Positions 30,329-37,919 of a DNA stretch of 64,000 nucleotides are shown one piece after another. The DNA lies in NCBI GenBank assembly GCA_004321885.1, contig SCQK01000013.1, positions 96,001-160,000 on the forward strand. Reading direction: 5' to 3'. Position 1 is the first letter of the stretch. The number at the start of each line of letters is the position of its first letter. This DNA is from Patescibacteria group bacterium (lineage in GTDB: Bacteria > Patescibacteriota > Patescibacteriia > Magasanikbacterales > GWA2-37-8). A program made the position numbers and the translations under genes. The notes under the pieces are model-generated. The model saw only the letters and a list, made by a program, of their open reading frames with translations, searched no databases and was not told the DNA's origin.

Positions 30329-30988
30329 CTAATTTTTTTTATTTTCCAAAATCCTCATTAATTCATCTCTCATTTTTTTATTATGGTAATAAACTGTTAA
30401 AACTCCATGTCTACTTTTTTCGCGATAAGTACCTTTTCTAACAGACATTGTTATCGTGCTTTTGTAAAATTGATTTTTATTTACCTTTATTTGCCCCTTC
30501 CAAAACCTTAGCGCTTCAGTCACTGAAATGTCATTGAATAACTGAAGGCTAAACTTAAGGTCTTTTCTTCTAATGGAAAAAAATTTAACTAAAAAGTCAA
30601 TAAATTTCTTGACCAATCTTGGGTCAGTATTTCCCAACCTAACTGTGCATTTATCCGCTTTTGTTCCCTCCCCCCAGTATAACCCAAGTCCAAAACCATA
30701 TAAAATTCCCTCTTTTAATGTATGTGGATACTTTATGACAAATGGATCACCGTTTGGGTTATTTTTTTTGTAAATAGCTTCACTGATAGATCTACACGTA
30801 ATCGAATATTTTTCCATCCAATAACGTATTTTATTTACTGAACATTCGAAAATATTGGCAATTTCTTGTGCCGACTTTCCCTGATTTTGATATAATTTTT
30901 GCAAAACACCTTTGCTTATCATATCACAAATTATATCATAGCCGACTGAATAGTACAAGTAACCCCAAGTAGATAATATGGTTGTCAA
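30329..30988 (-). CDS. HTH-containing protein with a degenerate LAGLIDADG-like motif; putative free-standing homing endonuclease between two intron-containing tRNA genes (TTG start)
   Basis: N-terminal HTH (SAQEIANIFECSVNKIRYWMEKY); ILYGFGLGLYWGEGTKADKCTVRLGNTD resembles the single-motif LAGLIDADG core; the ORF opens inside the tRNA-Tyr 3' exon and ends 6 nt before tRNA-Thr. Confidence 0.4.
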   Translation of the reverse strand: MTTILSTWGYLYYSVGYDIICDMISKGVLQKLYQNQGKSAQEIANIFECSVNKIRYWMEKYSITCRSISEAIYKKNNPNGDPFVIKYPHTLKEGILYGFGLGLYWGEGTKADKCTVRLGNTDPRLVKKFIDFLVKFFSIRRKDLKFSLQLFNDISVTEALRFWKGQIKVNKNQFYKSTITMSVRKGTYREKSRHGVLTVYYHNKKMRDELMRILENKKN

Positions 30989-33194: not shown

Positions 33195-34579
33195 ACGAGT
33201 AATTTCAAAATTTCTTCTTTTGATTTCGGCCCGATTACCGCCAACCGCATTCGCTTCCAATCAAAAAATCTTCGTGCCGCGCCACGCACCTGCCCGGCCG
33301 TAACGCGCTCTATTTTTTCCAACTGCTGTTCCGGCGTCTCTATTTTATCAGCGAACCAGTGCTGGCGCGCGAACCACTCGGCCACGGCGCTGGAATTTTC
33401 CATGGATAGCGCCATGCGGCCCGAAATGTTTGTTTTGGCGTCGTCTAATTCTTTTTTGCTGATGCCTTTATCCGCAATTTTTTTCAGTTCGCTTTTAATT
33501 ACCGAAAGCGCTTCGCCCAGCCGGTTGGAATCCAAACCAGCGTTAATGGTGATAACGCCGGTTTCGTTGTGGCTGACCCCGCCGGCGTGAATCATATAGG
33601 CCAATCCCCTTTTCTCGCGCACCTCCACGAACAAACGTGAACTCATGCCGGAGCCGAGCACGGTAAGCAATACCGCGTTCGCGTACCTGATAGGATCGTT
33701 GTAGGCGAAACCCGCGAACCCCATCACAACGTGCGACTGATCTATTTTTCTCTGTTCAACGCTAACCCGTTTTTCCAACGGCAATTCGCCCGCCGGCCAG
33801 CTGAATTTTATAAAATTTTCTTTGTTGAAATACCCCTCCTTCCCGCTCCCCTTTATAAGGGGAGGGAAACTATCGGCAGTTCCTCCCCCTTGATAAGGGG
33901 GAGGCTCGCCACCACACCAAATGCTTTGGTGTGGTGGCGAGGAGGGGGTATTCGCGAAATACTTCGCGGCCAACTTTTTTATTTTTTCCCGCGGCGCGTT
34001 GCCCGACACCGCCAGCGCCATATTCGCGGGCGTGTAAGCATTTTTGTAATACGCGAACAGCTCGTCCCGCGTAATATTTTTTACTGTCTCGGCCGTGCCG
34101 GCCACATCCCGCCCCAGTGGATTGCCGCCAAACACCGTGCGGTCAAAAACCAGCTCCACGGCCATGCTCGGATTATCTTCATACATCTTTATTTCTTCGG
34201 CAATCACTCCCCGCTCTTTGGTGATTTCTTTTTCGTCAAAAGTGGAATCAAAGAGCATGTCCGCCAAAATATCAAAAGCCAATTCCACCCGCCGGCCGTC
34301 TATTTTAATATAATAGCCGGTATAATCCTTGTAGGTAAAGGCGTTATAATCCGCGCCCACCGCGTCCAACTCGCGCGAAATATGCTGGGCCGTGGGACGT
34401 TTTTTTGTTCCTTTGAACATCAGATGCTCCACAAAGTGCGAAGCCCCGGAAATTTTCGCTGTCTCATAGCGCGAACCCACCGGCAATAAAACCATCACCG
34501 TGACGGCTTTGGTGCCGCCCGTCGGCGCCGTGATTAGCGACAAGCCATTTTTTAATTTTGATAGCCGATGCATAATCAC
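33191..34579 (-). CDS. M16 family zinc metallopeptidase (insulinase-like)
   Basis: HxxEH inverzincin motif HFVEHLMFKGT; two-domain M16 fold; carries a roughly 35-aa in-frame repeat insertion (33832-33952). Confidence 0.8.
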   Translation of the reverse strand: MIMHRLSKLKNGLSLITAPTGGTKAVTVMVLLPVGSRYETAKISGASHFVEHLMFKGTKKRPTAQHISRELDAVGADYNAFTYKDYTGYYIKIDGRRVELAFDILADMLFDSTFDEKEITKERGVIAEEIKMYEDNPSMAVELVFDRTVFGGNPLGRDVAGTAETVKNITRDELFAYYKNAYTPANMALAVSGNAPREKIKKLAAKYFANTPSSPPHQSIWCGGEPPPYQGGGTADSFPPLIKGSGKEGYFNKENFIKFSWPAGELPLEKRVSVEQRKIDQSHVVMGFAGFAYNDPIRYANAVLLTVLGSGMSSRLFVEVREKRGLAYMIHAGGVSHNETGVITINAGLDSNRLGEALSVIKSELKKIADKGISKKELDDAKTNISGRMALSMENSSAVAEWFARQHWFADKIETPEQQLEKIERVTAGQVRGAARRFFDWKRMRLAVIGPKSKEEILKLLV

Positions 34580-34809
34580 TCAACACCCAACAGCTTGCGT
34601 AAATTTTTATTGGCAAACTCAAGTTTTCTGATTTGCCAATCTTCCAGATTGTTTCCGCCGGCAACTTCAATTGACTTAGTTTCGGCGTTCCAGTCAGCGT
34701 CTATGCCGTCATCCTTCAAGCTCCTTAAAACCACCGCTATATTGCCTTTATATACGGTTTCTTCTTTCTCTAACATCCCAAACCTCTGCCTTGGCACGTC
34801 GTTGGTCAT
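34576..34809 (-). CDS. hypothetical 77-aa protein
   Basis: 4-nt overlaps with both neighbours (proS and the M16 gene), suggesting co-translation; no known domain. Confidence 0.4.
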   Translation of the reverse strand: MTNDVPRQRFGMLEKEETVYKGNIAVVLRSLKDDGIDADWNAETKSIEVAGGNNLEDWQIRKLEFANKNLRKLLGVE

Positions 34810-36131: not shown

Positions 36132-36310
36132 AAAATTTCAAATATTAATTCCATCAAACCCTTGACAAATGACGATTATGTGTTACACTATAATCAAATG
36201 TTAGCTGAACACTGACCGTATGGCAGGTGTCCCGGGGCGACTTGGGAATAGGCTATTCCCCCTTAAATGGGGGTTTTATTTTTTTATAATTCTAACACAA
36301 AAATCATTTT

Positions 36311-37234
36311 TTATAATACAATCTTATCTATTTGCTTGCTTAAATTTTTTCCACTAGACATAAACTTTAACGTTGCGAGCAAATCTGTTTGTGTTTGTGA
36401 CAACTTTTCACCTAAAATTTTATCTTGTTTGAATTTACCCGTATTTTCGCCATTTTTTTTCCGTTCTTTAAATGTTTTTGAGACGAAATGTTTGCCTAAT
36501 TCCTCCAATAACGTCGCTCTTTCATTCTCACAATTTTTTATCCTTTCTTCGGCCATTGAATTATAATCCTCCGAAATTTCTATTCCTAAATAATCGCAAC
36601 CCAATAATTTAGCCGCAACTAAAGTTGAACCGCTTCCCGAATATGGATCCAAGACAACCCCTCTTTTTCCGTCTAAAACCGAAAAAATTGCTCTTGCCGG
36701 CAGAATCATCGGAAATGGCGCGGGATGATTCACACATCGTTCCGGTGGAAATCGCCAAATAGACGTTAGTAAAGCATGTCTTGAGGCCAACTCCTCACCA
36801 ATTTTATTACCTGCGGGCTTATGCAACCAGTAAATACGTTCATCTACCTGCCAGAATCGCCATCCTCTGATATTGGCTGCTATCATTCTATCCCAAATTA
36901 TTTCCTGGCGCATGGTCCAATCCGATTTAGATAGCCAACTAATTGGATGTATCATCTCACCTTTTTCCCATCTCACTTTATGATTATAAAAAAAAGATCC
37001 GCCCGGTTTCGTTATACGAAAAATTTCGTTTAAAATTTCAACCTGTTCGTTTTGATACTCTTCTTCATTCTTGGCGTCACTAATCGCATTATACAAAACA
37101 TTTTTTACAAGCCAACCCTTATTTTTTTCCTTTTTATTATAAGGGGGTGAAGTAACGCAAACATCTATGATATTTGAATCAATCGTCTTTAAAATATCTA
37201 ATGTATTACCTTGTAAAATCTGATTGACTCTCAT
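36311..37234 (-). CDS. beta-class N4-cytosine/N6-adenine DNA methyltransferase
   Basis: motif IV SPPY near the N-terminus and motif I VVLDPYSGSGST near the C-terminus (circularly permuted beta class); AT-rich gene. Confidence 0.85.
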   Translation of the reverse strand: MRVNQILQGNTLDILKTIDSNIIDVCVTSPPYNKKEKNKGWLVKNVLYNAISDAKNEEEYQNEQVEILNEIFRITKPGGSFFYNHKVRWEKGEMIHPISWLSKSDWTMRQEIIWDRMIAANIRGWRFWQVDERIYWLHKPAGNKIGEELASRHALLTSIWRFPPERCVNHPAPFPMILPARAIFSVLDGKRGVVLDPYSGSGSTLVAAKLLGCDYLGIEISEDYNSMAEERIKNCENERATLLEELGKHFVSKTFKERKKNGENTGKFKQDKILGEKLSQTQTDLLATLKFMSSGKNLSKQIDKIVL

Positions 37235-37908
37235 TTTGCCTTTTCGGTTAAAAAATTATAAAATTTTCCGTTAAAATTGGAACGATTATCTTTTAGAGCC
37301 TTTACGTTAATATAAACGATTTTTAATTTTTTGCAATTTTGATAATCCCGAAAACCAAAGGAAGCACTTCGTAAAAAAGTCCCCTTCTCTCGACTCTTAT
37401 TTTTGAATCTTTTCTTTAATTTAAGCTTCAAACAGCTTGTAAATCCCTCGTTACAAAAAGGAAATTCCAAAATATAAATTAATTGCCCGTCAATAAAACC
37501 GCTAACCAAAATGTTTAGATTTGCCGCTAAATCTTTTTTAAGCCGCTCCGGTGTATAATCAGTGAAATTGCCACCTCCGTCAAGTTTTCTCGGCGTCTTA
37601 CGATTATTATTATCGCCGGTACAAATATTTCTCGGTTTTGCTTCACAAGCAATAAATTCACCGCCGATACTCACACTTTGTTTAAAACCATTGTAACCTA
37701 TTTTTTTGTTGCTGTGCGTATAGCCAGCCAAAGTTATCGTAATGAATTCTCTAATAGTAGAAGAATTTTTATCATTTATATAAATGGTAAGCAAATCATT
37801 AAATAACGATATTAAATCATCTTTAGATTTATCCAACAAAAGAGCATTCAACTCCTTATGCGGTTTGGTGGCGTATGTAATTAAAATATCAGATAACGCG
37901 TTATTCAT
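37231..37908 (-). CDS. putative type II restriction endonuclease (PD-(D/E)xK-like) cognate to the adjacent methyltransferase
   Basis: 4-nt overlap with the MTase gene; very AT-rich; candidate E-x-K in GGEFIACEAKP; no similarity to housekeeping proteins. Confidence 0.5.
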   Translation of the reverse strand: MNNALSDILITYATKPHKELNALLLDKSKDDLISLFNDLLTIYINDKNSSTIREFITITLAGYTHSNKKIGYNGFKQSVSIGGEFIACEAKPRNICTGDNNNRKTPRKLDGGGNFTDYTPERLKKDLAANLNILVSGFIDGQLIYILEFPFCNEGFTSCLKLKLKKRFKNKSREKGTFLRSASFGFRDYQNCKKLKIVYINVKALKDNRSNFNGKFYNFLTEKAK

Positions 37909-37919
37909 AAGCAGAAAAT

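Follow-up and report, generated by a model that had tools for sequence, protein, structure and literature searches.

We analyzed a 64-kb stretch of a Patescibacteria group bacterium contig (SCQK01000013.1; "the window" denotes this whole stretch of 64,000 nucleotides) that carries a probable two-gene restriction-modification (R-M) cassette, whose putative endonuclease and methylase we call R and M. In the open reading frame (ORF) list of the window, R (225 amino acids, aa) and M (307 aa) lie on the minus strand, and the stop codon of the first and the start codon of the second share 4 nucleotides (nt) as ATGA, exactly as an earlier note on this DNA had placed them. Housekeeping genes in conserved synteny adjoin the pair on either side, and intron, intein, and prophage contexts are absent. 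The gene upstream of R, on the same strand, is frr (ribosome recycling factor, RRF, match with an E value of 1.4e-52). The earlier note had set the pair between proS and frr; it was right about frr, but proS is rejected as the downstream neighbor, since the gene at 34806-36131 matches glycine–tRNA ligase (glyQS, hereafter glyS; NF003211, E 1.5e-187). The locus comprises the following features:

37231..37908, minus strand: R gene, putative type IIP restriction endonuclease with a predicted PvuII-like PD-(D/E)XK fold, 225 aa
36311..37234, minus strand: M gene, beta-class amino-methyltransferase, 307 aa (PF01555, PADLOC MTase_II, N4CMT structures)
37231..37234, minus strand: ATGA overlap of the R stop and M start codons (read from the sequence)
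37909..37919, minus strand: 11-nt spacer from the frr stop to the R start, the upstream edge of the inserted DNA (read from the sequence)
36132..36310, minus strand: 179-nt AT-rich insertion tail from the M stop to the glyS start (sequence read, consensus matches)

The R-M pair is foreign DNA that was acquired horizontally and inserted recently. Its G+C content is 0.32 in R, 0.361 in M, and 0.345 across 36132-37919, compared to 0.504 in the rest of the window, in keeping with the drop to the low 30s that had been noted earlier. Among stretches of 1.6 kb across the 64 kb (mean 0.501, standard deviation 0.035), that of the pair has the lowest G+C, and G+C at third codon positions is 0.30 in R and 0.32 in M versus 0.60-0.67 in glyS, frr, and the gene for an M16 peptidase. 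A scan with the glycyl-tRNA synthetase (GlyRS) protein yielded 80 related genomes, mostly Magasanikbacteria with 64-82% GlyRS identity, in which the frr-glyS-M16 gene order is kept; none of the 80 has R or M at that site. The gap between frr and glyS is 60 nt or less in 26 of 69 relatives. Here, the inserted DNA measures approximately 1,788 bp (36132-37919), starting 11 nt past the frr stop codon and ending with the AT-rich tail. Against a mobile element stands the appearance of the insertion edges, where we sought direct and inverted repeats, a target-site duplication, and mobility genes (transposase, integrase) and found none.

The frr-glyS junction varies among the relatives, with gaps ranging from 4 to 3458 nt. 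Gaps exceed 300 nt in 27 of 69, where they hold unrelated cargo that includes a Bro-N protein (locus L074), a weak match to an rve integrase (L038), several unknown proteins, and, in L064, an 868-aa membrane protein for which P-type ATPase is a guess from reading the sequence. The junction thus looks like a recurrent insertion spot. Several of the loci (L013, L015, L018, and others) are titled "uncultured Gammaproteobacteria bacterium" but show 75-82% GlyRS identity and frr-glyS-M16 synteny with Magasanikbacteria; the labels of these metagenome-assembled genome records look wrong.

M is a beta-class SPPY methyltransferase, as the earlier note had recognized. It scores 103 bits against PF01555 (N6_N4_Mtase; gathering cut-off 26.7) and matches the PADLOC MTase_II models with an E value of 1.7e-33. 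The SPPY tetrapeptide of motif IV (residues 29-32) sits near the N-terminus, HPAPFP follows at residues 170-175, and the S-adenosylmethionine-binding motif I (VLDPYSGSG, residues 194-202) lies toward the C-terminus, giving the order motif IV, target-recognition region, motif I that defines the beta-class permutation. A lysine-rich tail extends from about residue 240 to residue 307. Of the solved structures, those of the N4CMT catalytic domain from a bdelloid rotifer match best (8s9m/8s9n, E 6.6e-44); this enzyme makes N4-methylcytosine (m4C) experimentally (PMC10406627, PMC8885841). SPPY or SPPF is typical of N4-cytosine enzymes, as opposed to DPPY in N6-adenine enzymes (PMC8885841), and Rodriguez et al. 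identified N4-cytosine methylases recognizing TCGA and CCSGG as the closest bacterial homologs of N4CMT (PMC8885841). We compared M by BLASTP with the sequences in Supplementary Data 1 of that study (PMC8885841). Five REBASE proteins labeled TCGA (M.PmaEXORF210P, M.Hwi430ORFCP, M.HciORF741P, M.TbaTF1ORF1101P, and M.Tru12173ORF8030P) are 55-60% identical to M over approximately 250-270 residues, followed by the methylase of Prochlorococcus phage P-TIM68 (47%), Adineta vaga N4CMT (37%), and the CCSGG group including M.NciI, an m4C enzyme (32-33%, with M.NciI at 32%). These identities place M in the TCGA-labeled clade. From these motifs and relatives, M is probably specific for N4-cytosine. A CcrM-like orphan methylase was considered and ruled out, given 61.9 bits against NF050803 (cut-off 830) and the presence of a conserved nuclease partner.

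R has no match in Pfam (E≤0.1), NCBIfam, or PADLOC, and none among PDB sequences, whether searched as a single sequence or as a family profile. Its sole library match is PHROG 3210, annotated as "unknown function", and the identical protein is already recorded as a hypothetical protein of Patescibacteria group bacterium. Yet the family is large: a collection clustered at 90% contains 761 homologs (E≤0.01) of approximately 215-240 aa, all named "hypothetical", and clustering at 50% leaves 336 representatives. With these 761 homologs of R, and 2637 of M at E≤1e-10, neither ORF arose by chance.

It was structure prediction that settled the fold of R, sequence searches having given nothing useful. 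An earlier model built from 37 close homologs left the loop at residues 68-84, where the Asp-bearing strand was expected, unresolved, whereas a diverse alignment of 79 sequences resolved it and yielded an AlphaFold model with a pLDDT (predicted local distance difference test) of 96.6 and a pTM (predicted template modeling score) of 0.90. In structural comparisons with this model, PvuII is clearly the best match, with which Foldseek agrees (PvuII at E 1.4e-4, probability 1.0), and further fold matches include DpnI, NhoI, Eco15I, ThaI, SwaI, the homing endonuclease I-Ssp6803I, and Holliday-junction resolvases. One point weighs against the assignment: hhalign aligns R with PvuII at a probability of 0.15, so that no link exists at the sequence level. 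R accordingly lies outside the PvuII family by sequence and has the PvuII-like fold in three dimensions. The earlier note had allowed that the 225-aa ORF might fall into a non-nuclease family; the model instead resembles PvuII and other PD-(D/E)XK restriction enzymes, and we regard R as a nuclease-fold protein of the PvuII-like PD-(D/E)XK type, as modeled.

Conservation in R converges on a candidate active site made up of Glu54, Asn73, and Glu89-x-Lys91, together with the conserved Asp46 and Asp117, the latter being invariant in the close clade with Asn at position 73 (N-type). Across 59-79 distant family members, only Asp46 and Lys91 are invariant, while Ser49, Ser50, Glu54, Lys69, Glu89, Gly111, Gly113, Asp117, and Phe138 are at least 90% conserved and Glu89 is nearly invariant. 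In the model, Glu54 lies on a helix (residues 51-60), Asn73 just precedes a strand (74-77), and Glu89-x-Lys91 is on a second strand (85-95). Placed by secondary structure and motif spacing rather than by superposed coordinates, these elements would correspond to the canonical PD-(D/E)XK layout, in which a Glu sits on the helix, the Asp position opens core strand 2, and core strand 3 carries ExK. The PD-(D/E)xK core proposed in the earlier note therefore holds for the fold and for Glu89-x-Lys91 but not for the first Asp, which is Asn73.

R and M travel together. Among 80 metagenome loci recovered with the R family alignment, a methylase lies immediately 3′ of R, on the strand that R is on, in all 79 that are informative; the 80th contig stops 8 nt past R. 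The order in which a PF01555 methylase directly follows R in like orientation also occurs in five further unrelated gene contexts, namely between parA and a PBP gene in a Sungbacteria genome, between gcvH and gcvP, upstream of tig, beside a two-component system, and on a Planctomycetota contig. The G+C content of the pair is below that of its flanks in all five other hosts examined. M is thus no orphan, a possibility the earlier note had kept in view. Its description of a mobile type II R-M pair is likewise borne out by this linkage and by the empty site in the 80 relatives, "mobile" being drawn from distribution and composition and not from visible mobility apparatus. Plasmid records contained no copies, and phage records contained only solitary cyanophage homologs of R. 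The latter (approximately 35% identical, phrog_3210, "hypothetical") occur in 48 cyanomyophage records. In the one record examined, that of Synechococcus phage ACG-2014d, gp036 (L173, 2926-3522) follows directly after a helicase gene and has no adjoining methylase. Sixteen phage records match M at E≤1e-30, ACG-2014d not among them; P-TIM68 and S-CAM22 are among the other cyanophages with M-related methylases.

The main weakness in calling R a nuclease is Asn73. A change from Asp to Asn abolishes cleavage in many PD-(D/E)XK enzymes, and all 120 close homologs share the Asn, while about half of the wider family keeps Asp (75 of 150 representatives have Asp at this position and 56 have Asn), giving the family motif (D/N)-x15-E-x-K. 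These facts weigh against an active enzyme and would fit a decayed or domesticated system, in which M would be functionally solitary and R a catalytically dead DNA-binding partner with a PvuII fold, such as a regulator or specificity factor. We consider this unlikely. Asn or Gln occurs naturally in the PD-(D/E)XK active sites of MspI, HinP1I, and BglII. The N-type clade is full length and 52-73% identical across phyla, and it keeps Glu89, Lys91, Asp46, Glu54, and Asp117 without exception. Directly after a D-type member (P0284) comes a methylase with 50% identity to M and 50-56% to the TCGA-labeled methylases. Since both variants pair with the same methylase clade, they appear to serve the same kind of system. 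Moreover, R is strictly linked to M and the two move between genomes together, which is how an active selfish R-M unit behaves. We infer that Asn73 is tolerated as a metal ligand and does not inactivate R.

The same linkage bears on whether R could be a nuclease of phage or homing type with no part in restriction, its position beside M being incidental or serving another purpose. Such a nuclease would account for the solitary Synechococcus myophage homologs beside a helicase gene and for the appearance of I-Ssp6803I and Holliday-junction resolvases among the fold matches. It is hard to reconcile with a methylase at every informative locus and in the five further contexts, or with flanks that are housekeeping genes in conserved synteny, and we judge it very improbable. 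Less probable still is a modification-dependent, type IV-like nuclease, which the structural neighbors DpnI, NhoI, and Eco15I are. PvuII, the clearly best fold match, is a classical type IIP enzyme, R is a single domain of 225 aa with no separate methyl-reading domains, and a methyl-dependent nuclease whose translation is coupled to that of a methylase would cut the DNA of its own host if their specificities coincided. We therefore favor the reading of R and M as a horizontally acquired, two-gene type IIP R-M cassette of 1.8 kb in the otherwise tight frr-glyQS junction of a Magasanikbacteria-like genome, with a probability of roughly 0.8.

The target of the cassette is likely TCGA. In 62 kb of host sequence, no other 4-bp palindrome is as strongly depleted as TCGA (25 observed and 166 expected under a Markov expectation; observed-to-expected ratio, O/E, 0.15; z −10.9), and the depletion is uniform across the window. 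In samples of 9-20 kb, pooled O/E is 0.33 in 32 other carriers of the pair versus 0.68 in 80 non-carrier loci. Several points count against TCGA. GATC (O/E 0.22) and CTAG (O/E 0.33) are also strongly depleted in the window, and both are depleted about as much as TCGA in carriers and in the comparison of carriers and non-carriers. Fifteen of the 80 relatives without the pair at frr-glyS also have a TCGA O/E below 0.3, and one carrier (L008) shows no TCGA depletion. The TCGA labels of the REBASE relatives are themselves predictions ("P" entries) and not measurements, and strong genome-wide TCGA depletion fits awkwardly with an insertion that is compositionally fresh. Because GATC and CTAG differ as much, we take TCGA avoidance as compatible with the target and not as proof of it. 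The avoidance is not creditable to this fresh insertion; repeated encounters of the lineage with TCGA-specific systems are a likelier cause. The assignment of TCGA draws on the database label and on this non-specific host depletion; that the methylated base is m4C rather than N6-methyladenine (m6A) is somewhat more likely still, as suggested by the SPPY motif and the kinship with N4CMT. A literature search found no characterized m4C methylase acting at TCGA. Within the window, only one real methylase carries a motif of the [DNS]PP[YFWH] type, and, with GATC and CTAG depleted as well, the host genome probably encodes further restriction systems elsewhere.

Like the PvuII system, the cassette is a compact two-gene unit in which R, as modeled, bears ExK on its third core strand and the partner methylase belongs to the beta-class amino-methyltransferases, with features of the N4-cytosine type. 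Unlike PvuII, R has no detectable sequence similarity to that enzyme, is approximately 70 residues longer including a four-helix N-terminal region, has Asn instead of Asp at the first catalytic position, and has TCGA rather than CAGCTG as its predicted target. The R and M genes of PvuII are arranged divergently, whereas those described here are co-directional and overlapping, and no gene for a controller (C) protein is present. M resembles the putative TCGA methylases in REBASE over nearly the full length, including the target-recognition region between motifs IV and I, and shares with them the SPPY tetrapeptide and a conserved C-terminal "TFKERK" tail; these entries are predictions and not characterized enzymes. 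To judge from their strain names, the hosts of the five are presumably Aquificota and Helicobacter rather than Patescibacteria. M belongs to the same methylase lineage as rotifer N4CMT and the cyanophage methylases of P-TIM68 and S-CAM22, but a chromodomain, a relaxed sequence specificity, and the lack of a nuclease partner set N4CMT apart, while M is a plain bacterial enzyme coupled to such a partner. The cassette probably shares its 4-bp target with TaqI, the classical restriction enzyme for TCGA, its partner M.TaqI, and Helicobacter pylori M.HpyAX. M.TaqI is a gamma-class N6-adenine enzyme. M.HpyAX makes m6A at TCGA (PMC3936762). M, by contrast, has the N4-cytosine SPPY motif. R matches no Pfam restriction-enzyme family, including that of TaqI, and given its PvuII-like fold it may cut differently, possibly leaving blunt ends.

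Taken together, the likenesses allow a mechanism to be proposed. M would most likely place m4C in both strands of the palindrome TCGA, protecting host DNA, and R, probably a homodimer like PvuII, would most likely cleave unmethylated TCGA in incoming DNA. For catalysis, R would most likely bind Mg2+ via Glu89, Asn73, and neighboring acidic residues, with Lys91 as the catalytic lysine. A role of the pair in defense is plausible. PvuII, DpnI, ThaI, and SwaI are blunt cutters, and since these are the closest structural relatives, a blunt cut (TC^GA) is a reasonable guess that would set R apart from TaqI. More speculatively, R may found an undescribed endonuclease family (336 clusters at 50% identity, with uncultured bacteria as the main source and solitary copies in cyanophages) that has a PvuII fold and a natural Asn-for-Asp site and cuts TCGA bluntly unless blocked by m4C, with M drawn from the prokaryotic lineage ancestral to the cyanophage and bdelloid-rotifer N4CMT enzymes; we put this combination forward only tentatively.

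The layout of the locus also suggests how the pair may be expressed. The ATGA overlap would fit a coupling of M translation to that of R, and the frr-R spacer is too short for a separate promoter, so R and M are probably transcribed by read-through from frr, whose promoter-like site lies at 38533-38505 (a consensus match only). In the insertion tail, two promoter-like sites at 36204-36175 and 36168-36141 face glyS; these are likewise consensus matches only, and would be promoters by inference. The tail also contains a GC-rich hairpin 3′ of the M gene (36255-36274, CCCCC-loop-GGGGG), whose T-run is on the plus strand only, so that its terminator score applies to the other strand and not to that of the R-M genes. 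The hairpin is adjoined and followed by an 8-bp perfect palindrome (GGGAATAG/CTATTCCC).

Two other ORFs in the window were observed in passing. A second low-G+C island (30329-30988, minus strand, G+C approximately 0.34) holds a 219-aa ORF with no Pfam match, of which the N-terminal helix-turn-helix part weakly matches PHROG "HNH endonuclease" families (E 3e-7); the ORF probably represents a further mobile or homing-type gene. The M16 peptidase gene and glyS are separated by a 77-aa ORF (34576-34809, minus strand) that overlaps each of them by 4 nt. Pfam gives no match for this ORF, and none of the 80 related genomes, in which glyS and the M16 gene nearly abut, contains a counterpart.

Small type II R-M cassettes move between genomes constantly, and Patescibacteria rely on such cassettes. 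As biology, the pair is thus ordinary, and it is unusual only in that R belongs to a widespread family with no domain-database model. An active R would represent a natural PD-(D/E)XK enzyme whose first metal-binding position is Asn. In that case it might also be a new enzyme for TCGA that differs in its cut and its sensitivity to m4C and, as such, a potential reagent. M is closely related, among bacterial enzymes, to the lineage from which the rotifer 4mC "epigenetic" methylase arose. Neither Pfam, NCBIfam, and PADLOC nor the annotated PHROGs contain a model of the R family, so that genome annotation and defense-system finders currently miss it, and finders blind to it would count hundreds of such methylases as orphans.
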